Positions 12,126-60,096 of a DNA stretch of 64,000 bases are shown here, in pieces. Source of the stretch: Candidatus Babeliales bacterium. GTDB taxonomy: Bacteria > Babelota > Babeliae > Babelales > JANWKD01. The stretch's first letter is position 1. Every line of letters begins with the position of its first letter. The stretch is taken from positions 224,001 through 288,000 of the forward strand of contig CAVRJM010000001.1 of NCBI GenBank assembly GCA_963722075.1, read 5' to 3'. A program made the translations under genes and the position numbers. Under the pieces are notes generated by a model. That model did not search any database, had not been told where the DNA came from, and was given only the letters and a program-made list of their open reading frames with translations.

Positions 12126-12217
12126 GGAGAGGTGTCTGAGTGGTCGAAAGAGCACGATTGGAAATCGTGTATGTCCCGAAAGGGGCATCGAGGGTTCGAA
12201 TCCCTCTCTCTCCACCA
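12126..12217 (+). tRNA. tRNA-Ser(GGA)
   Basis: GGAGAGG...anticodon arm CACGA-TT-GGA-AA-TCGTG, long variable arm, GGTTCGAATCC, encoded CCA. Confidence 0.95.
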
Positions 12218-12241
12218 GTCATTTCTGAAAGAAATGCCTGG
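12215..12241. repeat. 27-nt tRNA-3'-linked palindrome (copy 1)
   Basis: CCAGTCATTTCTGAAAGAAATGCCTGG; homologous copies at 59793 and 60062. Confidence 0.85.
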
Positions 12242-12339
12242 CTGCGCCGCTATAGGATTTGTTACGTCGTAACTTTAGCGGCGGCGAATTGAAATTAATC
12301 TTCCTGCTCATCAAAAAAAGGTGAGCAGAATAAAAAGTT

Positions 12340-12422
12340 GGGAAGTCATAAAGGATGAATGCACAATCTGTCAGGTCTGAAAGGAAGCAGCAGGGGCATA
12401 CACATTCTTGTATCGACTTCCC
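12340..12422 (+). ncRNA. ffs: Signal recognition particle RNA (4.5S)
   Basis: Helix-8 motif TGTCAGGTCTGAAAGGAAGCAGCA closed by GGGAAGTC...GACTTCCC; tRNA-Ser/ffs/dnaX neighbourhood. Confidence 0.9.
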
Positions 12423-12483
12423 TTTATTTTTTGAATGTTTGAGTCTGAAGAGTTTTTATTTATTTAAATGATACGAGGTGTTT

Positions 12484-12981
12484 ATGAAAAGAATCAAATT
12501 GTGTATAGCAGGATTATGCATACTGTTAGCTCACTTAAGCAGCTCTGCTGAACAAGACGGTGCATGTAAAGATGGCGTATGTCCCGTTATACTGGATAAA
12601 CCGCAACCAGCAATACCAAAAGAAAAGCAAGCAGAACACAGTTCTGTTCTTGAGCTAACCAATCAAAATTTTGATTCAATTATCAAAAATTCTACAAAAC
12701 CAGTCATCGTCGATTTTTATGCGGTGTGGTGTGGGCCCTGTAAAATGATGAAGCCCCTCTTTGCTGAGCTTGCTGTAACAGAAAAAGAATATATTTTTGC
12801 AGCAATTGAAGGTGATAAACATCCTACCATAAGTGCACAATGCAAAGTTAATGCGTTTCCTTCTTTTGTTGTTTTTAAAAATGGTGTTCAATGGGGTAAA
12901 ATTGAAGGTGGAAAACCTAAAGAAGATCTTTTGAATGCGATAAAAAAAATTGTCGCAACTGCACAGCCACAAAAAAAGTAA
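12484..12981 (+). CDS. Exported thioredoxin-family protein
   Basis: Signal peptide, extra CKDGVC motif, VDFYAVWCGPC active site. Confidence 0.9.
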   Translation: MKRIKLCIAGLCILLAHLSSSAEQDGACKDGVCPVILDKPQPAIPKEKQAEHSSVLELTNQNFDSIIKNSTKPVIVDFYAVWCGPCKMMKPLFAELAVTEKEYIFAAIEGDKHPTISAQCKVNAFPSFVVFKNGVQWGKIEGGKPKEDLLNAIKKIVATAQPQKK

Positions 12982-12994
12982 ATTTAATAAAACT

Positions 12995-14719
12995 ATGGAT
13001 AATCATTCCCTACAACTTAATCTTGCGCGCAAATGGCGTTCTAAAACGTTTGATCAGGTAGTAGGGCAAGATTTATCGGTACGAATTTTAAAAAACAGCC
13101 TTTATTTAAATCATTATTTTCCGGTGTATCTTTTTGCCGGTCAGCACGGCTGTGGTAAAACTACCATGGCACGTATTTTTGCAGCAGCGGTTAATTGTCA
13201 GCAGCTCACCGTATTTCAGCAAAATCCTAAAGAAGCTGCGATACCATGTCTTGAATGTTCCTCCTGCCTGGCAATGGCGGGAGCTAATCATCCCGATTTT
13301 ATTGAAATTGATGGCGCATCACACACTGGCGTTGATCATGTGCGGCATATTATTGAAGTGGCTGCATTCTTGCCTATTATGGGAAGAAAAAAGATATATC
13401 TTATTGATGAAGCGCACATGCTTAGTAAAGCAGCTTTCAATGCGTTTTTAAAAATACTTGAGGAACCACCGGCATCTGCTCTGTTTATTCTTGCTACTAC
13501 CGAACTATATAAAATTATTGAAACGGTACGTTCACGCAGCTTTCAACTTTTTTTTCGCGCGGTAGAAGAAAAAACATTAGCCGCACATTTAGAACAGATA
13601 TGTGCACGTGAATCAATTGCTTATGATCAGCAAGGGTTAGTTGCTATTGTTAAACACACTAAGGGATCGGTACGCGATGCTATTAATTTGCTTGAACAGA
13701 TACGTTTTGCAGCCAGTCATATTACAAAAAAAGCAGTACTTGAAGTATTGAGTCATACTGATGAGGAAATCATCATTACCGTATATGAAACAATTCAAAA
13801 TGGTAACCCTGAGCAGCTTTTACACTGTATGCAAGAACAAAAATTACAAAGCTATGCAATTGAAGGAGTGTACAAATCATTAATCGAACTTATTACCAGT
13901 TGTATATGGGTTTCATATGGTCAAAAACCGCGCTTTTTTACCCAGTATACTGATCGGCTTAAACGCCTCACGCAAATGCATTCTGTTGCTTATTTTACGG
14001 ATTGTTTAACAGCATTATTTCAATACGAACAACAACTCTATCGAACGGATGCTGCCTGGGAGCTTTTTGAAATGGTGTTATTGCGCTTATGCCTTAAAAG
14101 GAATGCTCTTGCTCAAAAAGCTGAAATAATGGGAGGTTGCAAAGAAACACCAATAGCGTCTCAACCCACAGTTTCCCAAGTAACGTCTAAAAAAAATAAT
14201 GAAATAGTTCCCTTAAATCAAACGAAGTTTGAAATAGTTGATAACCCATTGTGGCATTCATTTATTAGCCAAGTAGAGTTATTTGATCCGTTATTGAGTT
14301 CTATTTTTAAACAAGGCGTATTTAAAGGTTTTGATCAGCAGGGCAGCATTACTATTGCGTTTGGTAAAGAATTTGTCTTTTTTGAAGATATGCTTGAAAA
14401 ATCAAGTACCATTTGGAAGCCGTTGCTTAATTCATTGGCTGGTAAACCGGTGCAGGTAAAGGCACAATTTCAAGAATTGAGCACTTCAATAGCATTGCCT
14501 ATAAAAAAAACAGTTGCTGAACAAAAAGAGCCAATACCGATAAAAAAACCAGTAGCACCAATTAAACCGCCGTATAAAAAAATGGAAAAAAAAACGACTG
14601 AACAAAGAGGAACTACGTATCCCGTGGTTGATACATCAGATACAAATCAATGGAAGAAAGCAGCGTTACTTAAAACATTTTTTCCAGGCACCATTTATGA
14701 ATTACCTGAAGGAACTTAA
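12995..14719 (+). CDS. dnaX: DNA polymerase III subunit gamma/tau
   Basis: LARKWRSKTF, GQHGCGKTT, Zn cysteines, IDEAHMLS, LKILEEPP. Confidence 0.96.
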   Translation: MDNHSLQLNLARKWRSKTFDQVVGQDLSVRILKNSLYLNHYFPVYLFAGQHGCGKTTMARIFAAAVNCQQLTVFQQNPKEAAIPCLECSSCLAMAGANHPDFIEIDGASHTGVDHVRHIIEVAAFLPIMGRKKIYLIDEAHMLSKAAFNAFLKILEEPPASALFILATTELYKIIETVRSRSFQLFFRAVEEKTLAAHLEQICARESIAYDQQGLVAIVKHTKGSVRDAINLLEQIRFAASHITKKAVLEVLSHTDEEIIITVYETIQNGNPEQLLHCMQEQKLQSYAIEGVYKSLIELITSCIWVSYGQKPRFFTQYTDRLKRLTQMHSVAYFTDCLTALFQYEQQLYRTDAAWELFEMVLLRLCLKRNALAQKAEIMGGCKETPIASQPTVSQVTSKKNNEIVPLNQTKFEIVDNPLWHSFISQVELFDPLLSSIFKQGVFKGFDQQGSITIAFGKEFVFFEDMLEKSSTIWKPLLNSLAGKPVQVKAQFQELSTSIALPIKKTVAEQKEPIPIKKPVAPIKPPYKKMEKKTTEQRGTTYPVVDTSDTNQWKKAALLKTFFPGTIYELPEGT

Positions 14720-16032
14720 TGGATATCTTACCTAAAGTAGTTATTATTGGACGAGCAAATGTTGGTAAATCTACCTTATTTAATAGGCTGTCCACCTCCG
14801 TTAAAAGTCTAACCTTAGATATTGCTGGGGTAACGCGTGATTTTATTGCCGATACCGTTAGTTGGAAAGGAGTTACTTTTCAATTAGTTGATAGTGGCGG
14901 GATCAGTTTGAAAAAATCGCAAGACGTGCTTACCGAAAAAGTTCGCCAAATTGCATTATCGCTCATTGAACAAGCGGATTTAGTGCTTTTTGTATGCGAT
15001 GGCAAAGCAGGAATTGTTCCTGAGGATCGAGAAATTAATAAATTTTTGCATAAAGCTGGTAAAGATACCATTGTTGTTGTTAATAAAATTGATGCAACTA
15101 CGGCACAAGAACAGTTATACGAATTTAAGCAGTTGGGTTTTGATACCATAGCAATTTCAGCACTACATGGTACTGGTTCGGGAGAAATATTACACGAAAT
15201 AGTAAAACGGCTTGAAAATAAACAAGTAAGCTACGTTCCTGAAAAATCAAAAATGAATTTGGTGCTTTTGGGCAAACCTAACGTGGGTAAATCATCATTA
15301 TTAAATAAATTATTAGAACAGGAACGTGCCATCGTCTCGCCGCAACCGGGCACCACGCGCGAGCCTATTACCGAACAGATTCGCTTTTATAAAGAAAATA
15401 TTCAAGTAACTGATACGGCAGGCATACGCCGTAAACGTGGCGTCACTGAGCAATTAGAAACAATGATGGTTAAAACGTCATTCAAAGCAGTTGAGCGCGC
15501 TGATATTGTACTTTTATTAATTGAGGGTACTGAAGGGCATTTGAGCGATCAAGAATTGAAACTTGCCTTTTATGCATTTGAACATAATAAGGCGCTTATT
15601 TTATTAATTAATAAGGACGATCTTACCACAGAATTGCAACATGCAGATCTTGATCGCGATTTTGAGAAATATGAATTTTTTGCAAAAAAAATCCCTCAAT
15701 TATATATCTCATGTAAAACCGGAAAAAATATTGGCAAAATTTTACCACTCGTTTCAAAGGTATGGGAGCGGTATAACCAAGAATTCTCTAATCAAGAAGT
15801 AACTGAACTGTTCAAACGAGCGCTTGAAAAAACGCCGCTCTATCATAAAACTTCACAATTACTCCTCAGGAAAGCAAAACAAATTAGCAAAGCGCCGTTA
15901 CAATTTTTATTAATTGTTAATGAACCCTTATGGTTTGGCCCGAGTCAATTATCGTTCTTTGAGAATGTTATGCGTAAGCACTATGATTTGTTGGGCGTGC
16001 CGTTGAAATTTATTCCGAGAAAAAGCGACTGA
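14719..16032 (+). CDS. der: Ribosome biogenesis GTPase Der (EngA)
   Basis: Two GTPase domains, GRANVGKST and GKPNVGKSS; DTAGIRR. Confidence 0.97.
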   Translation: MDILPKVVIIGRANVGKSTLFNRLSTSVKSLTLDIAGVTRDFIADTVSWKGVTFQLVDSGGISLKKSQDVLTEKVRQIALSLIEQADLVLFVCDGKAGIVPEDREINKFLHKAGKDTIVVVNKIDATTAQEQLYEFKQLGFDTIAISALHGTGSGEILHEIVKRLENKQVSYVPEKSKMNLVLLGKPNVGKSSLLNKLLEQERAIVSPQPGTTREPITEQIRFYKENIQVTDTAGIRRKRGVTEQLETMMVKTSFKAVERADIVLLLIEGTEGHLSDQELKLAFYAFEHNKALILLINKDDLTTELQHADLDRDFEKYEFFAKKIPQLYISCKTGKNIGKILPLVSKVWERYNQEFSNQEVTELFKRALEKTPLYHKTSQLLLRKAKQISKAPLQFLLIVNEPLWFGPSQLSFFENVMRKHYDLLGVPLKFIPRKSD

Positions 16033-16040
16033 TCTTTTCA

Positions 16041-16075
16041 GTCGTCCTGAGGCACGTTAGTGCCGTGAGGATCCA
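16041..16075. repeat. Single arm of palindromic repeat family A
   Basis: GTCGTCCTGAGGCACGTTAGTGCCGTGAGGATCCA, similar to the arm at 50993..51025. Confidence 0.7.
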
Positions 16076-16083
16076 ATAAATCA

Positions 16084-16488
16084 TTACGTGAGTAAATTGG
16101 GATAAAAACGACTCATTACAGAATATGCCGTTATACCAGTGGCTGCAAGTAATGAGATAAAGCACAATCCACCATAGATTACTTGTTTTTTTTCTATTTG
16201 ATTCCATCTGATACTGGGATCATTGTCGTCCAATGCATCTAGATGTTGTATTAGGGCATCGTGATCAATGGTACGAGTTCGTGTTAATTGTTTGTTATAT
16301 TTAAAAGCATGAAAGCCAAAATATAACCCTAATCCAGTCAAAGTCAGCACGGTACTACCAACTTGGAAGGGTGAAAATTGATATGATTGGTTGGTTAGAT
16401 TATTATTTGGTATCCGATTTGCAAAAAAAAAGACAGCGGAGCTGAAAGAAGTGAAAAGAAATAAAGGTAATAAAACTAATTTTTTCAT
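16084..16488 (-). CDS. Hypothetical exported two-TM membrane protein (GLYxG family)
   Basis: MKK signal, hydrophobic segment TGLGLYFGFHAF, second C-terminal TM. Confidence 0.75.
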   Translation of the reverse strand: MKKLVLLPLFLFTSFSSAVFFFANRIPNNNLTNQSYQFSPFQVGSTVLTLTGLGLYFGFHAFKYNKQLTRTRTIDHDALIQHLDALDDNDPSIRWNQIEKKQVIYGGLCFISLLAATGITAYSVMSRFYPNLLT

Positions 16489-16508
16489 AATAATCTCTAA
16501 TTAAATGT

Positions 16509-16856
16509 TCAGTTAAAAATATTTTTTATCAATGGAGCCGCATATACCCCGGCAAGAAATAATGAACAGGCACTGATTGTAAAATAGAAGGCTGTCTGAT
16601 CAGCCAATTTATCATTTTTGTTATAAGCCTGGCGATATTGAATTGTAGTATGCGCAGATACATTATGTAAGATTCGTGCTTGGCGAAGATCATCTTCACA
16701 TTCAGCTAAACGATTTAGGTTATTAACAAAACGATAACCACTATACAATCCGATAATGGTAAAGCCGAGAGATGGTATGGATTCTCCTAATTTTGGTAAT
16801 GTACCCGCAAAGCAAGTAGTGACGTATGTAAGTAGTAATAAAATTAATTTTTTCAT
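16509..16856 (-). CDS. Hypothetical exported two-TM membrane protein (GLYxG family)
   Basis: MKK signal, IIGLYSGYRF, C-terminal TM. Confidence 0.75.
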   Translation of the reverse strand: MKKLILLLLTYVTTCFAGTLPKLGESIPSLGFTIIGLYSGYRFVNNLNRLAECEDDLRQARILHNVSAHTTIQYRQAYNKNDKLADQTAFYFTISACSLFLAGVYAAPLIKNIFN

Positions 16857-16875
16857 AATATCTCTAATTATAAAG

Positions 16876-18024
16876 TTATTTTTTAATGTCTTTGATGGCT
16901 TTTACCATATCCATATCTCGTTCTGAAGCAAAATAATCGAGTAAATTACTTTTGTATTTATATAAATAAATTCCTGTTACTAACAAAAATAATGGTGTGT
17001 ATTCATTCAAAAAATAATTCAATTTATAACGTTGAATAATGCTTTTTAATTTAAGTAAAGCTATTACGGGCTTTTTTTCTATCTGTGCCCCGTTCTCTAA
17101 ATTTATAGTATCATAATGAGCTTGGTAACCTAACTCAGATAATAGTTTTTTTAATTGATCAATATGCCCAGAGCCAGCACAAACAAATATATGCGTATGC
17201 TTATTTACTATTTGTTCCTCATGGATATGATGTAAGAGCAAAAGATCAATTAGTGTATTAGAATATGAGTCTAAAATAAAACGAATAGCTTCTTTTTTAT
17301 TACGCTCAGTAATAGTTGTTTCAAAATCACTACTGATGTTTTGATATAGTATTGTTAGTTCATCATTACCAATGCGAGAAGTACCAAATAAGTTAAAAAA
17401 CTGTAAGGTATGATGGTAACCACGCAAAATCGTTAATAATGTATTGTCATGTGCCGTATGCCTCAGAAGTCGATCACAATATTTTCTAAGTTTCTTTGGG
17501 TAACACATATGTTTTTCTTTAAGTAAATTTACGATTCGGTCAAAATGGTCCCAGACCTGCTCAGAGGATTTTGAAAAATTAGGTAAGCAAAAAGGTAAGA
17601 TTGATGAGCCAATTTCAAAATGCCTACATTCGACGTTAATAACGGGGATATGAGCATATTGTAACAGTGAAGTAAGTCCCGATAGAAATTGTGAATGATA
17701 TATTTTAGTTAGCCCATGAACGAAAGAAACGTATGATGGCACATAATTAATATATTGTCCACTTGAAAGGGAATCCTCAACAATGCAAAGGGCATTCAAT
17801 CGACGAGCTTCATTAATTAATTCAATTTGTTGCTGAGCATCTTGAAAGGATGATTTATGATTATCTGGAAATAGATGGATATAATAATTGTTGTCAGCTT
17901 TATTTGTTAAAATAAGCGTTTCTTTGCTATGTACTGAAGCAGTACAGGGATATATAATAGCAATTAAACTAATAATTATTACTTTAATTGTAGAGATCTT
18001 TGTTATAAGATTCATATTCTTCAT
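16876..18024 (-). CDS. Exported protein, possibly TraB/GumN/Tiki-like metallohydrolase fold, with C-terminal anchor
   Basis: Signal; IHLFPDNH near the N-terminus and HIFVCAGSGHIDQLKKLLSELGY resembling the TraB/GumN FVAVGAGH...LL...GY motif. Confidence 0.55.
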   Translation of the reverse strand: MKNMNLITKISTIKVIIISLIAIIYPCTASVHSKETLILTNKADNNYYIHLFPDNHKSSFQDAQQQIELINEARRLNALCIVEDSLSSGQYINYVPSYVSFVHGLTKIYHSQFLSGLTSLLQYAHIPVINVECRHFEIGSSILPFCLPNFSKSSEQVWDHFDRIVNLLKEKHMCYPKKLRKYCDRLLRHTAHDNTLLTILRGYHHTLQFFNLFGTSRIGNDELTILYQNISSDFETTITERNKKEAIRFILDSYSNTLIDLLLLHHIHEEQIVNKHTHIFVCAGSGHIDQLKKLLSELGYQAHYDTINLENGAQIEKKPVIALLKLKSIIQRYKLNYFLNEYTPLFLLVTGIYLYKYKSNLLDYFASERDMDMVKAIKDIKK

Positions 18025-18048
18025 TATAGCTCCAAAAAGCTTTCATTT

Positions 18049-18545
18049 TTATTTCCAAAAATATGTTCTAATGTTGCATCCCGCTACGAACGCGGATAAA
18101 ATAAAAGAGCCAATAGCAATTCTGCCATACCATTTGCGTGAATCATGAAGGGGATCATCCCTTCTATTTATTGTAGCTAGTCGTTGTGCCATCTTTGTCC
18201 AATTATTATTAATATCTTGTTGGTTTGCGCTCCACGCTTGATCACGCTCATGACTATTGTTTTTTATTGCTTGATTATCCTTCATAAAGCGATAACCGCA
18301 ATAGGTTCCGATAAATGCTAAACCAATTGAGAGCAGTATGCCCAAAGAAGGGCTACCTAATTTTGTAAATAGGTCGCCAAAAGCACTTATTGATGATGAA
18401 GAAGATGGCATATTTTGGTTATCAGCATAATGCACTATCAGGTCTCCGATTTCGTAAGTGCCATTCAGATGTAAATGATCAAAAATAAAATCTTTTTGCA
18501 TAGCATAAGTAAAAGATAGTGGAAGAGAAAATAATAATATAATAA
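18049..18545 (-). pseudogene. Exported two-TM protein whose signal peptide is interrupted by the IS; 5' end at 19693..19711
   Basis: Removing the IS and one TAATAA copy restores in-frame MKKILIILLFSLPLSFTYA-MQKDFIF...; contains AFIGTYCGYRF. Confidence 0.88.
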
Positions 18546-19692
18546 CAGGACTTACGCATTGGTCGAAAGTTCTGATTGGGACTTGAAATAAATAAAAAAG
18601 GGTGCTTCAATTTTGTGAATTAAACAACAAAAGCAAAAAAGAAGGACACCCGAAATGAGAATAACAAATACAAATGAAGAATCAAGCACACCAAAATATG
18701 TAATGGGTTTATTAAAAACAACGGCACGAAAAGTTTGCACAAATATTTCTGAAACACTGGGAATAATGCATGATGTGCTCAATAGGGAAGTTGAAAAAGC
18801 AGCCCAGAATGCAGCAGAAATAACAAGCTCATTACAAAATGTTGCTCTAGAAAGTCTTAGCAATTGCGAAAGATATTTGATAATCGATGATACTCCCGTA
18901 AATAAGCAATATGCTAACGATATTGAAGGATTAGAAATTGTTTATGATAGTAGTGAGAAAAGATCAGCTTTGGGATTACGGTCTGTAATTGGCATGATCA
19001 CTGATACCAGAGTAAGAATACCGATTGATGCGGAGATTATGATAAGCAAAGTATTTGGAGAAACCAATTACAAGACAAAAAGTGAAATTGCTTACATTAT
19101 TATAGAGCGTGTTCTAGGATCAATTCGGTTTAATTGGTTAATTGCAGATGCCCATTATGCGACTGAATACCTTCTGCCAAAGCTTTTTAACAGGTCAATA
19201 AAATTTCTGATGAAAATTCCCAGAAATCGCGTTGTTACTATTAACAATAAAACAGGACAATTGCAAAAAATTTTACGTTTGAAAAAAAATAACAGATTTG
19301 CTTGTGGATACGGCACTATTTTTGGTCTTTCCTGTTATTTCTATGTGTTAAAAATTGATAAGGAAAAAATTATGTATCTTATCAGTAGCCATCAGCTCGG
19401 CAAAGAGAAGCTAATTTCTACATATAAGATTCGTTGGCAAATTGAATGCTTCAATAGAACTGCCAAACAACTTCTTGGATTCAGCGAATGCCAAATGCGT
19501 TCTTTTAACATGCAGCGTGCGCATTTACTTTTCGTGTTATGGGCTTATGCTTTAGCCGACATAAGGCGGGTAAAAGATAATTTCGACAATACTGAACAAG
19601 CCGTCAGATCCTTTCGGGTCGCAAAACCCCCTACACCATCTAGTTTATTTTATGCTTTTGAAGAGAACTCTTATGCTCTTGCGTAAGTCCTG
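18546..19692 (+). mobile_element. IS701-like insertion sequence with 13-bp terminal inverted repeats
   Basis: CAGGACTTACGCA (18546..18558) and TGCGTAAGTCCTG (19680..19692); TAATAA duplicated at 18540..18545 and 19693..19698. Confidence 0.92.
18655..19686 (+). CDS. DDE transposase (IS701/IS4-like)
   Basis: YLIIDDT, WLIADAHY, YKIRWQIECFNRTAKQLLG (YREK-type motif). Confidence 0.93.
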   Translation: MRITNTNEESSTPKYVMGLLKTTARKVCTNISETLGIMHDVLNREVEKAAQNAAEITSSLQNVALESLSNCERYLIIDDTPVNKQYANDIEGLEIVYDSSEKRSALGLRSVIGMITDTRVRIPIDAEIMISKVFGETNYKTKSEIAYIIIERVLGSIRFNWLIADAHYATEYLLPKLFNRSIKFLMKIPRNRVVTINNKTGQLQKILRLKKNNRFACGYGTIFGLSCYFYVLKIDKEKIMYLISSHQLGKEKLISTYKIRWQIECFNRTAKQLLGFSECQMRSFNMQRAHLLFVLWAYALADIRRVKDNFDNTEQAVRSFRVAKPPTPSSLFYAFEENSYALA

Positions 19693-19725
19693 TAATAAGT
19701 ATTTTTTTCATAATAATTTTCATTT

Positions 19726-20244
19726 CTATTTTGACTGTGTTGTGATTTCAATTAGTTTATTCATTGCAAAAGTAAGACCAGTAGTGGCACTGAAAAATAA
19801 AGTTGATAAGCCAAAAATAGTCGAATATTTAAAATTATTGTTTTCAATTATATTTAATTCGTCTATTTGCACACCGATCGCTTCTGGTGGTCTATTTTCA
19901 TTGCCTGATTGGATTGCTTCAGCTTTTTGTTGTTCAACTAGTCGATCCATTTTTCTATCGGTTAATTCTGATTTGATTGCATAATATAGATACCCTAATG
20001 CGCTTATAGCTAGTAATGATTTATTAATGCTTATAATTGGGTTTTCTTTGATTGTTTGCGCTAAAAAATTAGAATTATTGAATTGTTGATACCCATGATA
20101 CAAACCAAGCCCTGTTACCTCTATACCTGCAAAAATTGCAAAAATATTAAAAGGATTTTGTAAATGCTCAAGTAATGTTGGCCGGCGTGCAAGAGTAAAA
20201 CTGCTGCCAGCTATAAAAAGTAAGAGTAATAATAGTTTTTTCAT
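19726..20244 (-). CDS. Hypothetical exported multi-TM protein (GLYxG family)
   Basis: MKKLLLLLLF signal, TGLGLYHGYQQF, further TM segments. Confidence 0.75.
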   Translation of the reverse strand: MKKLLLLLLFIAGSSFTLARRPTLLEHLQNPFNIFAIFAGIEVTGLGLYHGYQQFNNSNFLAQTIKENPIISINKSLLAISALGYLYYAIKSELTDRKMDRLVEQQKAEAIQSGNENRPPEAIGVQIDELNIIENNNFKYSTIFGLSTLFFSATTGLTFAMNKLIEITTQSK

Positions 20245-21090: not shown

Positions 21091-21094
21091 CAGC

Positions 21095-27274: not shown

Positions 27275-28678
27275 GTGAGATCGCCAGATCAATTAAAGCA
27301 AATGGTAAATGATCTTTTGGTGCACCATCAATTAGTTAAGCACATTGTTGGTGATATTTACCAGCATAACGGTTCCAGTTTTTTAGTGGGTGGTGCGGTA
27401 CGTGATCTTATTCTTAATTTACCGGTTACCGATTTAGATATCGAAGTTCATGGGATTTCGCTCGAGGTATTAGAAAAAATATTGCGTGTTCATGGTATGG
27501 TAAATTATGTAGGCAAGGCATTTGGCGTGTTGCGCATAGAGCGTCTAGCGGTTGATTGGTCAATTCCGCGTGCTGATAAAGCAGGAAGAAAACCGTTGGT
27601 AAAGATCGATCCTTATATGAATATAAAAAAAGCATTTGAACGACGTGATTTAACCATGAATGCTATGGGGATAAATTTAATCACGTTAGAATTAGTTGAT
27701 CCATTTGATGGCTATAGCGATATGAAGGAAGGGGTGTTGCGTACACCTAATCCTGCTTTTTTTGTAGAAGATCCCTTGCGATTTTATCGCGTAATGGCAT
27801 TTATTGCGCGCTTTAATATGTGGCCTGATCGGCAATTAAATCGTCTTTGTGCAACCATGGATATTGCACATGTTTCGCATGAACGAATTGAAACAGAATA
27901 TAAAAAATGGTTGTTGAAATCTGAAAAACCATCGCAAACGTTAGTTTGGCTTGATATGATTGGGCGTTTACCAGAATTATTACCTGAGATTGCTGCTACC
28001 AAATCTATTTTACAAGAACCCGATTGGCACCCGGAGGGGAATGTTTTTGAACATACCAAGCAAACAATCGATGCCGCAGCATTATTGCATTATGAATCTT
28101 ATGAAAAAAAATTAGTTATTATGTATGCGGCTTTGTGTCATGATTTAGGAAAAATAGTAACGACAAAATTAAGAGATGGTCGTTTAACGTGTTATGACCA
28201 TCCAAGAAAAGGTATTTTTTTTACCAAAAAATTATTAAAAAGAGTTACTCATAATAAAAAACTGATTGCAAGTGTATGCAAATTAGTCGAAACTCATTTA
28301 TATCCGGCAGAATTTATTAAGGGGCATGCGCGGTTAAATGCCTATAAACGGTTAGCATTAAAACTGGCTCCTGAGGTAACGATGGCTATGCTTGCACTGG
28401 TATCATTAGCGGATAAAAGGGGAAGAAATAAAAGTAGAAAAGGACCATTAAATACAACGGAACCGGATATTGAAGCATTTTTAAAAAATGCACAAGCTGC
28501 TGGCGTATTAACAACGGTAGAAAAACCATTGTTAACGGGAAAAGATCTTATGCCGGAAATTGAACCTGGCCCGCTCATGGGAGCGCTTGTTAAACAAGCA
28601 TATGCCCTTCAGTTGCAAGAAGGAATCGATGACAAGGAAGCGCTCAAAAAGTTACTTTTAAAAAATTATAGTAAATAG
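27275..28678 (+). CDS. cca: CCA tRNA nucleotidyltransferase with HD domain
   Basis: VGGAVRD, DLDIE, RRDLTMNAM, EDPLR, HPEG...EHT, CHDLGK. Confidence 0.92.
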   Translation: MRSPDQLKQMVNDLLVHHQLVKHIVGDIYQHNGSSFLVGGAVRDLILNLPVTDLDIEVHGISLEVLEKILRVHGMVNYVGKAFGVLRIERLAVDWSIPRADKAGRKPLVKIDPYMNIKKAFERRDLTMNAMGINLITLELVDPFDGYSDMKEGVLRTPNPAFFVEDPLRFYRVMAFIARFNMWPDRQLNRLCATMDIAHVSHERIETEYKKWLLKSEKPSQTLVWLDMIGRLPELLPEIAATKSILQEPDWHPEGNVFEHTKQTIDAAALLHYESYEKKLVIMYAALCHDLGKIVTTKLRDGRLTCYDHPRKGIFFTKKLLKRVTHNKKLIASVCKLVETHLYPAEFIKGHARLNAYKRLALKLAPEVTMAMLALVSLADKRGRNKSRKGPLNTTEPDIEAFLKNAQAAGVLTTVEKPLLTGKDLMPEIEPGPLMGALVKQAYALQLQEGIDDKEALKKLLLKNYSK

Positions 28679-52406: not shown

Positions 52407-52409
52407 ATG

Positions 52410-53462
52410 TTATTGAATAACCCCTGCTCCTAAGCACTGTGAATTAGCATAAAAAACAGCAAATTGCCCCGATGCAATACCTTGATCATTTTCTGTTAAG
52501 CGTATTTCTGCTTTATGATCATCAATAAATTCGATTGAACAGCTGTGAATTTGTGCACCATGACGTAATTTAACAAGCAATTCACGTTGCATTGGTTTTT
52601 TGCCTGAAATCCAATTAAAATTGCCAACAATACATGATTTGCGCAGTTTTTCTGCCGAGTAATAGTTTCGCGAAATATAAACAGTGTTACTGCTTGGATC
52701 TTTGGCAGTTACATACCAAGGGCCACCACTCAATCCAATGCCCTGACGTTGCCCAATAGTATAAAACCAAAAGCCTTCATGGATACCCATTTCTTTTCCT
52801 GTTTCAATTTCAATTAAAGGTCCTTTGGAAGTACCTAAATGATACTTTAAAAATTCATCAAATTTTAATTTCCCTAAAAAGCAAATTCCTTGGCTATCTT
52901 TGCGCTCTTTATTGGGAAGGTTAAATTGCTGGGCTAATGCGCGTACTTGGGATTTTTTTAACGCACCTAGGGGAAAAAGGGCTTTTTGTAATTGTTCTTG
53001 GGTAAGATACGAAAGAAAATAGGTTTGATCTTTAATAGGATCAGGGGCAGCATGGAGTTCCTTAAGACCATTTTGTTCAAGTACTTGGGCATAATGGCCC
53101 GTAGCAATTGCGTCAAATTGATTGCCAATAGCATCATAAAAACAACCAAATTTGATCTGTTGGTTACAGAGAATATCAGGGTTGGGGGTAAAGCCTGTTT
53201 TTACCTGAGTGATAGTGTAGGCCACTACGCGTTCCCAGTATTCTTTTTGTAGAGAAATAATTTGTAGTGGAATATCCAATTGGGCGCATACGGCTTGAAC
53301 ATAGGTTAAATCTTCTTGCCAAGGGCATTCGCCCAAAAAAGAAAGTTCGTCCTCAAGCCAAATTTTTAAGTAAAACGCCGTAACTGAATGTCCTTGATCT
53401 TTTAGGAGTTTTAAAGCAACTGAGCTATCTACTCCACCAGATACTAAAACTGCTATATTCAT
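52410..53462 (-). CDS. mnmA: tRNA 2-thiouridylase MnmA
   Basis: SGGVDSS, TPNPDILCN, ATGHYA, KDQTYFL, DSQGICF, TIGQR. Confidence 0.97.
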   Translation of the reverse strand: MNIAVLVSGGVDSSVALKLLKDQGHSVTAFYLKIWLEDELSFLGECPWQEDLTYVQAVCAQLDIPLQIISLQKEYWERVVAYTITQVKTGFTPNPDILCNQQIKFGCFYDAIGNQFDAIATGHYAQVLEQNGLKELHAAPDPIKDQTYFLSYLTQEQLQKALFPLGALKKSQVRALAQQFNLPNKERKDSQGICFLGKLKFDEFLKYHLGTSKGPLIEIETGKEMGIHEGFWFYTIGQRQGIGLSGGPWYVTAKDPSSNTVYISRNYYSAEKLRKSCIVGNFNWISGKKPMQRELLVKLRHGAQIHSCSIEFIDDHKAEIRLTENDQGIASGQFAVFYANSQCLGAGVIQ

Positions 53463-53508
53463 AATGTATAAATATAGCAGTTATTTTTAAGATCGCCTAT
53501 TAGGTTTG

Positions 53509-54291
53509 TTATTTTAAGGCGTTATTAAGATTTTCAAGTCTATTTTTTAAGTTTTTTAGGCTAAATTCTACAGAACGTTCTCCAAGGGAGGTGGCCCATA
53601 CTTCTTCTTCCTCCTCTTCTTCTTCAGGTGTTGTAATGGTACCCCACATAGTAGGCAATTCTTCTTCACTTTCAGATTCTTCCGCGGAAATCCATCCCTC
53701 TTCTTCCGATTCTGCTCCTTCTTGCGCGGGTTGTAAGCCAATAGTTTGTTCAATCATATGGCGCGTTTGATTATCAGTAAAGTAAGGAACAAAATGATGT
53801 CTAAGTTTCATATCGCCAGTTCTGCTTTTATAAATTGCACTATGTCGTCCACTGATTTTCATTATATCTATAAAATGCTTCGCATTAACCCATCTAAAGT
53901 CTTTTTTTTCTTTATCCCGTTGATCAGGCCCTTTTAAAATTTGTTGGGGGGTTTTATAGGGAACTTCTGCTAAAAATAATGAATAATATTTTTTTGGGCC
54001 AGGATTAGTGATCCCATCTTTTGGTTGTAAATCCTTTTCGGTTAGTTTGTAAGTACCTCGAGATTCTTCCCGCAGCTCACGCAAGGCAGTTTGCTGAGCA
54101 GTTTCATTTCTCTTACCGCCACCACCAAAATCAGCCCAGTCATCTTCTAGTGTTCCAAAAGCTTCTTGTCCTAGTAGAAAATATACGTTCCCTTTGTGTT
54201 TAGAATATGGAAGTACGCCCGCATTTTTTGCTTCTAGTGAAAAACTAATGATGCATGATAAAAAAATAATGATTAATGCTTTTTTATTCAT
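53509..54291 (-). CDS. Secreted NUDIX hydrolase with acidic tail
   Basis: Signal; AGVLPY...FLLG...WADFGGGGKRNETAQQTALRELREES Nudix box; Glu-rich C-terminus. Confidence 0.85.
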   Translation of the reverse strand: MNKKALIIIFLSCIISFSLEAKNAGVLPYSKHKGNVYFLLGQEAFGTLEDDWADFGGGGKRNETAQQTALRELREESRGTYKLTEKDLQPKDGITNPGPKKYYSLFLAEVPYKTPQQILKGPDQRDKEKKDFRWVNAKHFIDIMKISGRHSAIYKSRTGDMKLRHHFVPYFTDNQTRHMIEQTIGLQPAQEGAESEEEGWISAEESESEEELPTMWGTITTPEEEEEEEEVWATSLGERSVEFSLKNLKNRLENLNNALK

Positions 54292-54442
54292 AGTAACCCT
54301 TTTTTAGTTAGTTTCTTTCATTTTATATAAGATAGTTTTTTCAAAGCAATGATTTGAACACGGTATATTCATTCTAGACTTTTGATTTATTTCGATTTAT
54401 AACTAAAACAGCCAAAAAATATGAAGCATCTGAAAGGAGTAA

Positions 54443-55807
54443 ATGGCTAAAATAGTTATTCTTGGTGCAGGGCTAACTGGGCTTTCAGTAGCCTATCATT
54501 TAGAAAAAAAAGGATATTTTGATTACAAAATAATCGAAAAAGATTCTACGGTAGGGGGGTTATGCCGTTCGGTTCATCAGGATGGCTTTACGTTTGATTA
54601 TACGGGCCATTTATTACATGCCAGTGATCCTTATTTCCAGTCATTTATTGCTCAATTAGTGGGTATGAATACCCTTAATACTATTGTACGGCGTTCTTTT
54701 ATTTATTCTCATGAAGTATTTACCCATTATCCATTTCAAATAAATTTATATGGATTGCCGGTACCAGTGATTGCTGAATGTATCGAGGGTTTTGTAACCA
54801 GAAAAAGAAATAAAAAAATTGACTCGTTTTATGATTGGGCGCTTGCTACTTTTGGACACGGTATTGCCCGCCATTTTTTCTTTCCTTTTCAAAAAAAAAT
54901 ACTTTCTTACAACTTAAAAAAAATTACGGCATCATGGACGGGGCGTTTTGTACCATCCACGTCACTAACTCAAATGATTCAAGGGGCCATTAGCGACCCG
55001 GCACTTGATCAACAGATTGGCTATAATGCTCATTTTTATTATCCCAAAAAAGGAGGAATCTTTTTCTGGGTAGAAAAAATTGCGCAGGCTTTAAAAAATC
55101 ATATTTACACGGGATATGAAGTTAAATCAATTGATATGGAGGCAAAACGGGTTATTTTTGCTAATGGCGATTATGAGCAGTATGATACGCTGATTTCTAC
55201 TATTCCCTTAGATATATTGTTGTTGCGCTTAGAAGACCGTTCAACAACAACCTTTAAGAAAGCCCAAGATCATTTGGTTTGTAATTCAGTGATTAACTTT
55301 AATATAGGAATAAATAGACCAGATCTTTCTGAAAAGCATTGGATCTATTTTCCTGAAAATGAATTTCCTTTTTATCGTATTGGTTTTCCACATAACTTTA
55401 CTTCATATGCGGTGCCAACGGGCTGTAGTTCTTTGTATGGCGAACTTTCTTATGTTAAAAAATCAAAAAAGCGAATTAATGAACAATTGCAAACATCGTT
55501 AGCGATGACAAAAAAATTGTTGGGTATTGCTGATCATGAAATCGTTACTGAAAAAATTATTCCTATTAGCCATGCCTATGTAATTTATGATTTTTGGCGA
55601 GAAAAAAAGTTACCTTCCTTATTAAAAGAACTTCAGCATAATGATATTTACTCAATTGGACGTTATGGGGCATGGAAATATTCAAGCATGCAGGAAGCAG
55701 TATTAGATGGCAAGAAAATTGCTGAAGAATTAGTGGTAATGCCAGCCAAAAAAACATTTTTTGTTACGCCTAAGGAATATGTTGGACAAAAAGAGATAGT
55801 AAATTGA
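54443..55807 (+). CDS. FAD-dependent oxidoreductase (UDP-galactopyranose mutase / protoporphyrinogen oxidase-like)
   Basis: GAGLTG, VGGLCRS, FDYTGH, GRYGAWKY. Confidence 0.8.
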   Translation: MAKIVILGAGLTGLSVAYHLEKKGYFDYKIIEKDSTVGGLCRSVHQDGFTFDYTGHLLHASDPYFQSFIAQLVGMNTLNTIVRRSFIYSHEVFTHYPFQINLYGLPVPVIAECIEGFVTRKRNKKIDSFYDWALATFGHGIARHFFFPFQKKILSYNLKKITASWTGRFVPSTSLTQMIQGAISDPALDQQIGYNAHFYYPKKGGIFFWVEKIAQALKNHIYTGYEVKSIDMEAKRVIFANGDYEQYDTLISTIPLDILLLRLEDRSTTTFKKAQDHLVCNSVINFNIGINRPDLSEKHWIYFPENEFPFYRIGFPHNFTSYAVPTGCSSLYGELSYVKKSKKRINEQLQTSLAMTKKLLGIADHEIVTEKIIPISHAYVIYDFWREKKLPSLLKELQHNDIYSIGRYGAWKYSSMQEAVLDGKKIAEELVVMPAKKTFFVTPKEYVGQKEIVN

Positions 55808-56709
55808 AGTTTGATTTTTACAAAAATAAAAAAATATTAGTCACTGGTGGAGCAGGCTTTATTGGTTCACATTTAGTGCATCAATTAGTGAGTTTGGGTG
55901 CGCATGTACATGTGCTTGATAATCTAAGTACCGGGACACTTGAAAATATAAAACGCGTGCTGCCATCTATTACTTTTCTTGAAGATTCTATTACCAATAT
56001 AGCTGCCTGTTTAGCAGCCACTGATCAAGTAGATCTTATATTTCATTGCGCGGCACAAACTTCGGTACCCCAATCGATGGAAAATCCGCTCTTTTGTTTT
56101 CAAACAAATATTGAGGGTACGTATAATCTACTAGAAGCAGCGCGAAAAAATAAGGTGCGGCGCGTGGTGTTTTCTTCTTCTTCAGCAGTATATGGTGAGC
56201 GGCAGGAAAAATGTCATGAAGAAATGGTATGTCAACCCAGCTCACCGTACGGTTATTCTAAATATATTGGTGAATCATTATGCAAAACTTACACTACTGC
56301 ATTTAATCTAGAAACGGTGAGTTTGCGTTATTTTAATGTATATGGTGAGCGGCAATTAATTACGGGGCCTTATGCAGCAGCACGTGCAGTGTTTAAAGAA
56401 TGCATGCATCTTAATAAGCCAATTACGTTATATGGTGATGGATCACAGCTGCGTGATTTTGTAAGCGTACAAAAAGTAGTAGAAGCAAATTTGATCATGG
56501 GGATGCTATGCAGTAGTCAGATAAATGGGCAGGTTTTTAATGTAGCTTCAGGTTCTAGCATTAGTTTATTGGAATTAATCGAAGCATTAAAAAAAGAATA
56601 TCCTTCATATAATCAAGGGATATTATTTAAACCGGCACGCGCGGGAGATATTCGCTCTATTGCGGCTGATTGTACTAAATTAAATGGTATAAGAAGTACT
56701 ATTTCTTAA
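55804..56709 (+). CDS. NAD-dependent nucleotide-sugar epimerase/dehydratase
   Basis: TGGAGFIG, SSSAVYG, YGYSK, LRYFNVYG. Confidence 0.93.
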   Translation: MKFDFYKNKKILVTGGAGFIGSHLVHQLVSLGAHVHVLDNLSTGTLENIKRVLPSITFLEDSITNIAACLAATDQVDLIFHCAAQTSVPQSMENPLFCFQTNIEGTYNLLEAARKNKVRRVVFSSSSAVYGERQEKCHEEMVCQPSSPYGYSKYIGESLCKTYTTAFNLETVSLRYFNVYGERQLITGPYAAARAVFKECMHLNKPITLYGDGSQLRDFVSVQKVVEANLIMGMLCSSQINGQVFNVASGSSISLLELIEALKKEYPSYNQGILFKPARAGDIRSIAADCTKLNGIRSTIS

Positions 56710-57101
56710 CGTGATCTGCCGCTAATACCAATATTCCATGTATTACCCGCACCATTAACCCATAAATCATAATGATCTAGATCACCATTAAAGGTGAGGG
56801 CAGGATCGATATTGGCATTATCTACGTTATTATCACCCTTATAAAAAGATGCACTGGTATAAGTACATTCTTTTTCTTTATCGGATAAATTATAAGTTAC
56901 TTTGTGATTGGGGCCAATGTAATTATAATGCAGCGTTGTATTACAGATATCCGGTAGAGAAGGCATGCTTTTGGAATGTATATGAACGCTAATTCCTTCT
57001 TTTTTATTTACGTTATGGATAGTAATACTACCTTCGCCGGCGAAACTATTGCTGAGGTTTGATAAAAATACTAGTAATAAATAGGTAATTTTTTTATTCA
57101 T
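56706..57101 (-). CDS. Small secreted beta-rich protein (paralog of 57227..57628)
   Basis: Signal; CTYTSASFY, LWVN, WNIGI; GGAGG RBS. Confidence 0.75.
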   Translation of the reverse strand: MNKKITYLLLVFLSNLSNSFAGEGSITIHNVNKKEGISVHIHSKSMPSLPDICNTTLHYNYIGPNHKVTYNLSDKEKECTYTSASFYKGDNNVDNANIDPALTFNGDLDHYDLWVNGAGNTWNIGISGRSR

Positions 57102-57226
57102 AAGCCCTCCATTACTATAAAAATAACATAATTTATTTCAGTTTGGCAATAATTATTGCTGTTTTACCTTTAATATTGCTATAATAATTTATGGAGATTT
57201 TATTTGATGAAAATGAGGAGAATTTC

Positions 57227-57628
57227 ATGATTTATGGTAAGAAAATGCTATTTTTAATTTTTATTTTAACATTGAACATGCAAATATATCCAATGATTCC
57301 GGATACTAACGTGACTATAGTGAATAAAAGCAAAGATCCGGTAACGGTGTACTTACATAGTGTGCCCAGGACATGTTATCCTGCTAAAAGAACTATTCGG
57401 TTTGATTTACCCGGGGCAACCATGTACTCTTTAGGTACAGTAACTAAGCCAGTAGGAACTACCTGCACCTATTCTAATGCTGATTTTTATCATAATGAAA
57501 ATCATTGGGGTAGTTCTGACATTCAACCGCGAGCCTATGTTCCGAGTGCTGATGGTGCTGCCAAATTGTGGATAAATAACTCAGAGGGTGGCAAATGGGG
57601 GATAGGAATAACTAAATTGAATCCATAA
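57227..57628 (+). CDS. Small secreted beta-rich protein (paralog of 56706..57101)
   Basis: GAGGAG RBS; signal; CTYSNADFY, LWIN, WGIGI. Confidence 0.75.
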   Translation: MIYGKKMLFLIFILTLNMQIYPMIPDTNVTIVNKSKDPVTVYLHSVPRTCYPAKRTIRFDLPGATMYSLGTVTKPVGTTCTYSNADFYHNENHWGSSDIQPRAYVPSADGAAKLWINNSEGGKWGIGITKLNP

Positions 57629-57722
57629 TTAGTAAATATATTCGCTTCGCCTCTCTTAATTGCTAAAAAAACTGATTTTGGCACACTATATACTATATTA
57701 AAACGTTAATATAGGAGCATAT

Positions 57723-58319
57723 ATGGCCAAAATTACCATGGAACTCATTCAACAGCTGCGTGATAGAACCGGCGTTGGCATGATGGATTGTAAAAAAGCA
57801 TTAACTGAAACTGATGGTGACCTAGAAAAAGCGGTCGAGTTATTGCGTAAAAAAGGTGCAGCTATAGCGGCAAAAAGATCCGCTAATGTAACGGTAGAAG
57901 GATTGGTACATGCGTATATACATCCCGGTAGCCAAGTAGGGGTTTTGCTTGAGATTAATTGCGAAACTGATTTTGTTGCACGTACAGATGCTTTGAAACA
58001 ATTTGCTGCTGATATTTGTTTGCATATTGCTGCAATGAAGCCTTTATATATTTCTCCTGAATCGGTTGATACTACGTTGCTTGAAAAAGAACGCGCTATT
58101 TTTAAAGAACAATTAGCTGCATCAGGTAAACCGGAAAAAATTATAGATCAAATTGTTGAAGGTAAAATTGCTAAATTTTACACCGAAGTCTGTTTATTAC
58201 AACAACCATTTGTAAAAAACGATAAAATTACCGTAGATGATGTTTTGAAGGATATTATTGCAAAATTAGGTGAAAATATAAAAATTAAGAAATTTGCCCG
58301 TTTTGAAATTGGCAACTAA
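57723..58319 (+). CDS. tsf: Elongation factor Ts (short form)
   Basis: LRDRTGVGMMDCKKAL, EINCETDFVA. Confidence 0.97.
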   Translation: MAKITMELIQQLRDRTGVGMMDCKKALTETDGDLEKAVELLRKKGAAIAAKRSANVTVEGLVHAYIHPGSQVGVLLEINCETDFVARTDALKQFAADICLHIAAMKPLYISPESVDTTLLEKERAIFKEQLAASGKPEKIIDQIVEGKIAKFYTEVCLLQQPFVKNDKITVDDVLKDIIAKLGENIKIKKFARFEIGN

Positions 58320-58338
58320 TGGTTGATAGGTCCTTTTA

Positions 58339-59046
58339 ATGAATATAAGAAAAACTATCTTATTAAAATTGACCGGTGAAATTTTACCTGTAAATGCTCA
58401 GCATCAGATTGATGGCGTCTATCTGCGCTCTATAGCACAGCAAATTCAACAACTTAATCAAACGCATTATTTTGGCATTGTTATTGGTGGTGGGAACTTT
58501 TTTCGGGGTAATAAACAAGGCGCTCATTTGGGCTTATCACCCAGCGTTGGTCACCAAATAGGGATGCTTGCAACCATGATGAATGGGTTAATTGTAAAAG
58601 ACATCTTAGAACAAGAAGGTGTTCGATCAACACTTTTTTCGGCAATACCTTCATCTGAAATAGCAGTGCCCATATCACAGCAGGCTATAAAAAATGCTAT
58701 GGGGAATGGTGAATGTGCAATTTTTGCCGGCGGTACCGGAAACCCTTTTTTTACTACTGATACAAATGCTATCTTACGAGCGTTACAAATGCGAGCAGAT
58801 TGTGTGTGGAAAGGAACTAATGTGGATGGTATCTTTTCTGCTGATCCTCGTAAAGATCCTCAAGCGCATTTCTTAAAGCGTGTAACCTATCAAGAAGCCC
58901 TTAATAATAATTTAAAGATTCTTGATGCAACTGCTTTTGTTCTTGCTAAAGAACAAGGATTAAAAATTCGTGTTTTTAATATATTCAAGAAGGATGCGCT
59001 TATTAATGCAGCACACCAACAGGATATGGGAAGTATTGTAGAATGA
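58339..59046 (+). CDS. pyrH: Uridylate kinase
   Basis: LLKLTGE, GGGNFFRG, GTGNPFFTTD. Confidence 0.96.
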   Translation: MNIRKTILLKLTGEILPVNAQHQIDGVYLRSIAQQIQQLNQTHYFGIVIGGGNFFRGNKQGAHLGLSPSVGHQIGMLATMMNGLIVKDILEQEGVRSTLFSAIPSSEIAVPISQQAIKNAMGNGECAIFAGGTGNPFFTTDTNAILRALQMRADCVWKGTNVDGIFSADPRKDPQAHFLKRVTYQEALNNNLKILDATAFVLAKEQGLKIRVFNIFKKDALINAAHQQDMGSIVE

Positions 59047-59083
59047 TGGTTATTATGAAATATAAATTAAAGGATTATTAACG

Positions 59084-59668
59084 ATGATTAATTTAAAATT
59101 AACTGATAATAATTTAAAAGAATTTGAACAATCAGTTACCGCCGAAATGGATAAATCACTTAAACATTTTGAGCGAGAATTGATTACTATTCGTACGGGG
59201 CGTGCACATCCTGCTATGGTAGAAGCACTGAAAGTTGCTTGTTATGGCACCGTAAAAAATTTAAAAGAGATAGCACTAATAACAGCGCCAGAACCAAAGA
59301 TGATTGTTATTGAGCCTTGGGATAAAAGTTTAATTCCTGATATTGAAAAAGCGATTGGCAATTCTGATTTAGGAATTACGCCGTTTAATGATGGTAATTT
59401 AATTAGATTACGCTTGCCTGAAATCTCAACTTCACGTCGTGATGAGTTAGTTAAAGTGCTTCATAAAAAGCTCGAAGATGCTCGTATTGCAGTTCGTAAT
59501 GTACGAAAAGATTACCATAATCTCGTAAGAGATACTGAAAAAACTAAAAAGATTTCAGAAGATCATACCCGTAGACTTAATGATACGTTGCAAAAAATAA
59601 CGGATAAGTTTATTGGTATTGTTGAACAGATGGCACAGAAAAAAGAAAACGAGATTAAAACGGTGTAA
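59084..59668 (+). CDS. frr: Ribosome recycling factor
   Basis: IRTGRA, EPWDK, ARIAVRNVR. Confidence 0.96.
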   Translation: MINLKLTDNNLKEFEQSVTAEMDKSLKHFERELITIRTGRAHPAMVEALKVACYGTVKNLKEIALITAPEPKMIVIEPWDKSLIPDIEKAIGNSDLGITPFNDGNLIRLRLPEISTSRRDELVKVLHKKLEDARIAVRNVRKDYHNLVRDTEKTKKISEDHTRRLNDTLQKITDKFIGIVEQMAQKKENEIKTV

Positions 59669-59719
59669 AACATCTTCCCTTTCTTAATTGTTGTGCTAAA
59701 CTTGCAATAGAATTTGACA

Positions 59720-59795
59720 GGGCCGCTAGCTCAATTGGTAGAGCGACAGACTCTTAATCTGCAGGTTATTGGTTCGATTCCAATGCGGCCCACCA
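59720..59795 (+). tRNA. tRNA-Lys(CTT)
   Basis: GGGCCGC...CAGA-CT-CTT-AA-TCTG...GGTTCGATTCC...GCGGCCCACCA, 76 nt. Confidence 0.95.
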
Positions 59796-59827
59796 GGCAT
59801 TTCTGAAGGAAATGACTGGCAGGCCAG
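59793..59827. repeat. tRNA-3'-linked palindrome (copy 2) plus CAGGCCAG
   Basis: CCAGGCATTTCTGAAGGAAATGACTGG-CAGGCCAG. Confidence 0.85.
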
Positions 59828-59977
59828 CTTTTTAAATGAAGTTGACATTATTAGTACAATGAAAAGCGCAAGACTATTTGGCATAGCTTGCTGCAACAAA
59901 GAAGTTGATATTTTCAAAATAAAAAATTGAATTATCTTATGAAGCAGAGTAAAATTATACAATTACCAAATTGATAA

Positions 59978-60064
59978 GCAAGAGTGGCGGAATTGGTAGA
60001 CGCGCTGGACTTAGGATCCAGTTCCCGAAAGGGAGTGGGGGTTCGAGTCCCTTCTCTTGCACCA
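59978..60064 (+). tRNA. tRNA-Leu(TAG)
   Basis: GCAAGAG...CTGGA-CT-TAG-GA-TCCAG, long variable arm, GGTTCGAGTCC...CTCTTGCACCA. Confidence 0.95.
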
Positions 60065-60096
60065 GTCATTTCCCTCGGAAATGCCTGGCAGGCCAG
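60062..60096. repeat. tRNA-3'-linked palindrome (copy 3) plus CAGGCCAG
   Basis: CCAGTCATTTCCCTCGGAAATGCCTGG-CAGGCCAG. Confidence 0.85.

Follow-up and report, generated by a model that had tools for sequence, protein, structure and literature searches.

A 27-nt hairpin begins at the encoded CCA of all three tRNA genes in the stretch of DNA analysed here, a 64,000-nt window (G000:C1:224001-288000) of the genome of a Candidatus Babeliales bacterium (G000; 1.47 Mb, 99% complete). The hairpin is probably the shortened, gene-less leader of a cassette in which a hairpin and a gene for a GIY-YIG nuclease of 80-90 amino acids (aa) lie behind the CCA of a tRNA or tmRNA gene, and it is probably a selfish repeat, likely spread by that nuclease. 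It is best read as a non-autonomous leader of the tRNA-end GIY-YIG cassette, similar to repetitive extragenic palindromes (REPs), and we infer cleavage and mobilisation by the nuclease. The data directly support a fixed CCA junction, the gain, loss and replacement of hairpins at orthologous tRNA genes, one polarity of the module, linkage of the nuclease class to tRNA genes and the pairing of one stem with one nuclease clade. An earlier interpretation made from the window's letters (the sequence-only reading) had offered two possibilities, a tRNA-targeting miniature mobile element or a dedicated processing or conformational switch on precursor tRNAs. The former was supported by filled and empty orthologous sites, stem types that vary between relatives, anchoring at tRNA ends and linkage to GIY-YIG genes.

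ARAGORN reported exactly three tRNA genes in the window, for Ser(gga), Lys(ctt) and Leu(tag). All three are host genes on the forward strand, as are their hairpins and tails. The pattern CCAG[T/G]CATTTC-N5-GAAATG[C/A]CTGG, by which the hairpins were located, had only three matches in the window with up to 3 mismatches allowed, and none in 100 shuffles. As the sequence-only reading had stated, exact copies start at 12215, 59793 and 60062, each tRNA continues from its CCA into the hairpin, and the CCA forms the first three bases of every stem. The tRNA-Ser(gga) gene (12126..12217) joins its hairpin (12215..12241) at the CCA at 12215-12217. This copy has a T/C stem mismatch and a loop in flipped orientation, and its stem is followed by CTGCGCCG. 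Sequence comparison with other copies identified a degenerate tail without second CCA and a decayed second palindrome at 12242..12290. The hairpin (59793..59819) of tRNA-Lys(ctt) (59720..59795) has a G/A mismatch, which corresponds to an inverted inner stem, and its tail, CAGGCCAG (59820..59827), ends in a second CCA and keeps the fixed 3' polarity. A decayed third arm and the start of a second palindrome, as in full-length leaders, were placed at 59862..59889 by eye against the tRNA-His and tRNA-Gly copies. The tRNA-Leu(tag) gene (59978..60064) carries a hairpin with a T/C mismatch (60062..60088), followed by the same tail as at Lys (60089..60096). Comparison with the empty sites of two relatives, G003 and G004, delimited the entire Leu insert to about 112 nt (60065..60176, the right boundary being approximate). 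The distribution of mismatches among the three copies, the common tail of the Lys and Leu copies and the lack of a U-run immediately 3' of the stem in the window copies had likewise been described correctly.

The window copies belong to a hairpin family that occupies most tRNA ends of the genome. A scan of tRNA 3' flanks, which the sequence-only reading had proposed together with a search for copies elsewhere, found hairpin modules at 28 of 37 tRNA and tmRNA ends, and the module recurred in related genomes. Sixteen tRNAs have the 27-nt stem (A type, variants counted), and 11 tRNAs and the tmRNA have sister stems, which begin at CCA, close with TGG and carry a second CCA in the tail. The exact 27-nt stem occurs 14 times in the genome and 13 of these copies are at a tRNA CCA. 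Among 55 sister leaders from four genomes, the triplet after CCA pairs perfectly with the triplet before TGG in 36, with 7 different triplets, a share that is inflated because the classifier demanded 2/3 pairs. Fifteen of the remaining sister leaders share the A-type T/C mismatch and 4 differ otherwise. A third, inverted arm downstream carries the same triplet in 35 of the 55.

Both A copies of the genome that lack a tRNA follow an attachment-arm sequence. The same arm precedes hairpins 8-12 kb downstream of tRNA-Arg(tct) in G001 and G003, where the tRNA end is occupied by a large serine recombinase that reads into the tRNA. The two copies are therefore displaced tRNA flanks, and their origin as independent jumps was rejected. 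Large serine recombinases, whose frames end inside the 3' end of tRNA-Arg or tRNA-Glu, were seen at L033:1563-3041 (-), L062:1-1509 and L086:10-1506, and their islands displace the hairpin module. An island attachment arm offers a comparable case outside tRNA genes: a sister hairpin occupies a CCA-like site of this arm at G000:C1 near 871831 and 881724, and the site is empty in two relatives (L122, L124).

Orthologous tRNA genes of four related genomes (G000, G001, G003 and G004) show a high turnover of the module. The occupied tRNA ends in these genomes number 28/37, 20/36, 20/36 and 18/38. By hand count, the module is present in all four genomes at 15 of 36 orthologous tRNAs, absent from all at 5 and of mixed occupancy at 16; the script skipped three G004 rows without CCA, one of which was seen filled separately. 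Among the 15 tRNAs that are always filled, only Lys(ttt) keeps one stem type throughout, and the dominant stem type differs from genome to genome. Ser(gga) and Lys(ctt) of the window carry different stems in all three relatives. Leu(tag) has the A stem in G000, another stem in G001 and no insert in G003 and G004, where the CCA is followed at once by the A-run and then the ribosome-binding site that precede the trigger factor gene. Across 261 genomes of the phylum the A stem is patchy, being found in 29 genomes and in 10 of 21 families at 0-15 copies per genome, and a reversed control pattern gave no matches in the same 261 genomes. ARAGORN placed 22 of 27 sampled phylum copies at a tRNA end. 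In an unselected metagenome sample, 61 of 69 distinct matches were at tRNA ends, representing 25 anticodon types and tmRNA. The 27-mer had no matches in viral contigs.

The orientation of the module was followed in 79 rows, from which 12 reverse reads were removed by eye to leave 67 copies. The stem is T/C in 34 of these copies, perfect GTC/GAC in 23, G/A in 9 and perfect GGC/GCC in 1, and a second CCA lies 3' of the stem in 61. The corresponding metagenome numbers are 22 T/C, 30 perfect GTC/GAC, 9 G/A and no perfect GGC/GCC. Loop orientation and mismatch state flip independently, and mixed combinations were seen. Since the polarity of the tail is fixed and loop and mismatch combine freely, the module has one polarity and only the inner stem flips or is corrected; inversion of the whole element was rejected on the same grounds. 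The sequence-only reading had explained T/C and G/A mismatches by the same element sitting in opposite orientations. This holds for the inner stem but not for the whole element, because the CAGGCCA tail lies 3' in the G/A copy as well. The inner-stem flips would match what is expected from template switching between the arms. Two copies with an altered CCA (G000:C4 and L212) show a matching change on the other arm. Loop length ranges from 3 to about 75 nt with stem and tail retained.

Eight matches to PF01541 were found in the genome. Three small GIY-YIG genes lie directly 3' of hairpin-bearing tRNAs; those at Gln and Gly are intact and the one at Glu has an internal TGA. A fourth copy, which is broken, follows an A-like stem on contig C4. 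The tRNA-end nucleases are single-domain PF01541 proteins of 79-90 aa. Their best PDB match is the UPF0213 protein 1zg2 (E 9e-4), followed weakly by Slx1, and NCBIfam gave no family name for the two intact local nucleases. They are 27-33% identical to the repeat-flanked GIY-YIG class of the genome. Relatives of the Gln nuclease occur in 159 of 261 genomes. We assembled 107 distinct nuclease loci, comprising about 70 from the best of 318 matches, 30 best matches to the Glu gene and the loci of the closest relatives; 101 had enough upstream DNA. A tRNA or tmRNA gene lies on the same strand at most 450 nt upstream in 73 of these 101 loci, against 0 of 30 loci of a control, which is the other small GIY-YIG class of the genome. 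Homologue loci outside the phylum scan, in records labelled Dependentiae, Gammaproteobacteria, Nomurabacteria, Saccharibacteria, Aequorivita and unclassified, follow a tRNA in 8 of 16 cases. The sequence-only reading had also proposed a look next to HUH nuclease genes; the single Y1 transposase frame in the genome (Y1_Tnp, 129 aa) is not near or flanked by these hairpins. A retro-element route is disfavoured by the lack of any PF00078 (reverse transcriptase) match in this 99%-complete genome.

The A stem is paired with a single branch of the nuclease tree (quick IQ-TREE, 106 rows, 79 columns, one broken row excluded). All 14 genes with an A-stem leader fall in one clade of 17 (SH-aLRT 99), the other three members have stems that look related by eye, and the A stem is present in none of the 89 rows outside the clade. 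As a trait on the tree the A stem requires 1 change, compared with a mean of 13.3 after shuffling (0 of 500 shuffles). The pairing spans genomes of eight families. Eighteen places share an identity of 70% or more with the local Glu gene; 15 of them have CCA and the stem, 2 a variant and 1 none, and 15 are open frames and 9 follow tRNA-Glu. Four of five nucleases beside the unselected metagenome copies belong to the matched clade. In several leaders of the clade the same arms enclose a loop of 40-75 nt, and for this reason the 27-mer is regarded as a short form of the leader.

Further features were seen among the nuclease loci. L200, the tRNA-Glu locus of G000, and L203 (G004:C5 near 148400) belong to two genera and have an identical TGA at the same codon of the matched nuclease, which may be an inherited pseudogene or possibly a case of read-through. 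Among loci L171-L269, other nuclease subclades appear to favour particular tRNAs and leaders (Gln, Arg(tct), Asn, Ser). In L193, L224 and L257 a duplicated tRNA 3' segment lies just after the nuclease stop codon, with its T-loop region split by another small palindrome; L193 and L224 belong to the group that adjoins the matched clade. This layout hints at a cut site in the T-loop for these nucleases. At L025:1382-1900 (Aequorivita) a related nuclease gene follows a tRNA-Arg without GC-rich leader; a decayed copy of a tRNA comes next and is interrupted by a different palindrome. A second small GIY-YIG class at L001, L005 and L006 (G000:C1 near 1398500, 140200 and 1361700) lies between inverted repeats with a CGTC-like tag, an Ssn-type layout; one of the three is broken.

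Several other genes of the window may be mentioned. A CCA-adding enzyme with an HD domain, to which the sequence-only reading had drawn attention, is indeed present (open reading frame (ORF) 27275-28678, PolyA_pol and HD domains), but it is a housekeeping gene not linked to the tRNAs, the nearest of which is 15 kb away, and a link to the hairpin was rejected on account of this distance. The bacterial small signal recognition particle (SRP) RNA gene (RF00169, 49 bits) is located at 12337-12428 (+), 95 nt downstream of the tRNA-Ser hairpin. A DDE transposase gene lies at 18655-19686 (+), and an ORF of similar length (L145:6101-7138) was found in a decayed island behind tRNA-Arg(tct). The window also contains two ATP/ADP translocase genes, which, together with the Candidatus Dependentiae label on the closest named homologue of the nuclease (L016), probably place the host in that group. 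No integrase family was found among 56 scanned window ORFs.

By analogy with SsnA, which nicks just upstream of its hairpin, the nuclease would bind its own stem in single-stranded DNA (ssDNA) and nick at or near the CCA. Host repair would then place a copy of the leader, gene included or not, 3' of another CCA, and the TGG of the leader may pair with the CCA of the target in this step. The arms could later be rewritten from each other by template switching, giving stems of the T/C, G/A and perfect kinds. Since the sequence upstream of the CCA is unchanged, the insert is tolerated by the tRNA. It is possible, although we hold this with much reserve, that the hairpin and nuclease form a one-ended mobile element whose sole enzyme is an 80-residue GIY-YIG protein, that TGG-CCA pairing picks the target, and that the family has split into orthogonal hairpin-nuclease pairs, of which this stem and the Glu-preferring clade are one.

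A number of observations weigh against spread of the hairpin by its nuclease. Cleavage and transposition are argued here from analogy. GIY-YIG enzymes are hydrolytic nucleases and are not known for strand joining; the joining step must therefore depend on unspecified host repair and is the weakest link of the mechanism. Both cognate nuclease copies in G000 are broken. G245, G222, G215 and G001 hold 10, 6, 5 and 4 copies of the hairpin, and no clade member was detected in them with the Glu-gene query; such copies may be relics of past bursts or may have been moved by other clades. One clade member, L214, has no leader, and the members of the quick tree are kin and do not count as independent cases. 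The cassette has no conserved right end, flanking inverted repeats being found at 2 of 100 tRNA-end nuclease loci against 23 of 30 in the control class. A duplicated tRNA end was flagged in 5 of 74 nuclease loci and was genuine by eye in 3. Three of the 16 mixed sites in the four-genome comparison are island insertions in relatives and not clean empty sites (shown for Arg(tct) and Glu, inferred for Arg(cct)).

Other explanations were weighed as well. The host might keep hairpin and nuclease at tRNA ends as a domesticated DNA function that cuts incoming or excising ssDNA at integration hot spots, with spread as a by-product. In relatives, serine-recombinase islands have entered at these CCA junctions and moved the hairpin to their far end; the nuclease class was found in 159 of 261 genomes; and SsnA affects transformation in Neisseria (PMC11893778). 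We nevertheless regard such a function as unlikely, given the fast turnover of types, the frequent pseudogenes and the islands themselves, which are present at tRNAs with the hairpin in their displaced flanks; the hairpin has failed to exclude them. Passive spread among tRNA 3' ends by gene conversion, in which the nuclease gene hitch-hikes and favours tRNA loci for read-through expression, would suit the high-copy genomes in which no cognate gene was detected and the dominant stem type particular to each genome. However, acceptor stems are not homogenised, which leaves CCA as the only homology at the junction, and the pairing of one stem with one clade in eight families remains unexplained by conversion, which we judge very improbable.

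The remaining two explanations concern RNA. The second proposal of the sequence-only reading, a signal in the precursor RNA that directs 3' processing or a switch that masks and exposes its CCA, was not supported, and we consider it very unlikely. Structure prediction pairs this CCA with a probability of 0.80-0.99, the arms beside it co-vary with 7 different triplets, and in 61 of 67 copies the tail ends in a second CCA. Yet a dedicated processing role is hard to reconcile with relatives in which the same tRNAs work without the trailer. The main fold has a predicted energy of -10.1 kcal/mol; the competing fold, at -7.5 and -6.5 kcal/mol, falls short of it by 2.6-3.6 kcal/mol and makes up about 1% of the predicted ensemble, and the Ser copy has no competing arm at all. 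The symmetry of the arms also persists in the two copies with a changed CCA (G000:C4, L212) and in copies displaced from tRNAs, and no Rfam family matches the hairpin. An intrinsic terminator or attenuator of tRNA transcripts is suggested by a stable stem directly behind a stable RNA gene and by T-rich DNA after some tails. This explanation seems very improbable, as at least 4 consecutive T within 9 nt after the tail were found in only 8 of 61 copies and none directly after the stem, and as copies lie inside tRNA operons and, at Ser, 95 nt upstream of the SRP RNA gene.

If the nuclease does mobilise hairpins, the smallest stand-alone GIY-YIG proteins, most of them without assigned function, would be enzymes of a selfish element, and tRNA CCA ends would be a universal safe landing site for it. 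A one-ended element of this kind would represent a transposition route distinct from the DDE, HUH, serine or tyrosine recombinase and retro mechanisms. With the matched stem and clade, an enzyme of about 85 aa and its substrate of about 35 nt would be at hand, and new sequence-specific ssDNA nucleases, in addition to Ssn, might be obtained in this way. Essential single-copy tRNAs mature in spite of a trailer predicted to pair with their CCA.

The closest described system is Ssn/SRM, although its defining layout is absent here. The main text of the report (Chenal et al. 2025, PMC11893778) describes a single-domain GIY-YIG protein of less than 100 aa with a hairpin repeat that also occurs in multiple gene-less copies. 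According to the same text, the hairpin is particular to each homologue and its loop is dispensable; SsnA binds its hairpin only as ssDNA, tolerates changes of the loop and cuts a few bases upstream. The NTS of Ssn begins with CGTCATT (PMC11893778) and the present stem with AGTCATT, and the residues mutated in SsnA in that study, Y6, Y17 and E64, correspond by spacing to Y5, Y17 and E63 here. Ssn genes have inverted SRMs on both sides in that account, whereas the present genes have a single 5' leader, repeats on both sides being seen in 2/100 loci against 23/30 of the control class. The published SRM search pattern gave 2 hits in the genome, neither of them at a tRNA, and left the tRNA-end hairpins unmatched; it is a strict test, since it also missed the repeats of the control genes. 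The word tRNA does not occur in the main text of PMC11893778.

The REP/REPIN/BIME-RAYT systems (Di Nocera et al. 2013, PMC3733652) share with the module short imperfect palindromes that form inverted pairs and mosaics, copies without a gene, tails of the CCA type and expansions particular to single lineages. They differ in that REPs are described there as scattered between genes, whereas the copies here are confined to tRNA and tmRNA ends. Neither a GTAG nor a CGTC tag is present in the tRNA-linked copies, which begin with CCAGTC or CCAGGC; two CCA-less variants read CGTC. The enzyme here is a GIY-YIG protein, while RAYT is an HUH tyrosine transposase. Elements of the IS200/IS605 type join the 3' side of a short fixed target, for the most part with no target duplication, and have end hairpins. 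The module shares these features with them, but its target is a tRNA end, and it has no linked HUH/Y1 enzyme and no structured right end. SegB of phages T4 and T6 is a free-standing GIY-YIG homing endonuclease of a tRNA cluster, larger and multi-domain, which homes between alleles. It likewise ties a GIY-YIG gene to tRNA genes and is thought to spread by cutting and repair, but it lacks a hairpin leader and gene-less copies at many tRNAs. The module is not a typical miniature inverted-repeat transposable element, as every tail found on a tRNA-oriented copy lies on the 3' side and a duplicated tRNA end was seen in 3/74 nuclease loci. Nor does it resemble the attachment site of an integrative element, no integrase family being found among the 56 window ORFs scanned and the islands of relatives displacing the hairpin from the tRNA.

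The 2006 survey of the GIY-YIG superfamily (PMC1564403) lists stand-alone Slx1-like domains, and the three mentions of tRNA in the text available are unrelated to a link of this kind. Literature searches, whose coverage excludes most subscription papers and the supplements of PMC11893778, found no description of hairpin-GIY-YIG cassettes at tRNA ends. Among known systems, the tRNA-end module functions most like the SRM-Ssn and REP-RAYT pairs and departs from them in layout and tag; the pairing of stem and nuclease clade and the inversion of the inner stem are new here.

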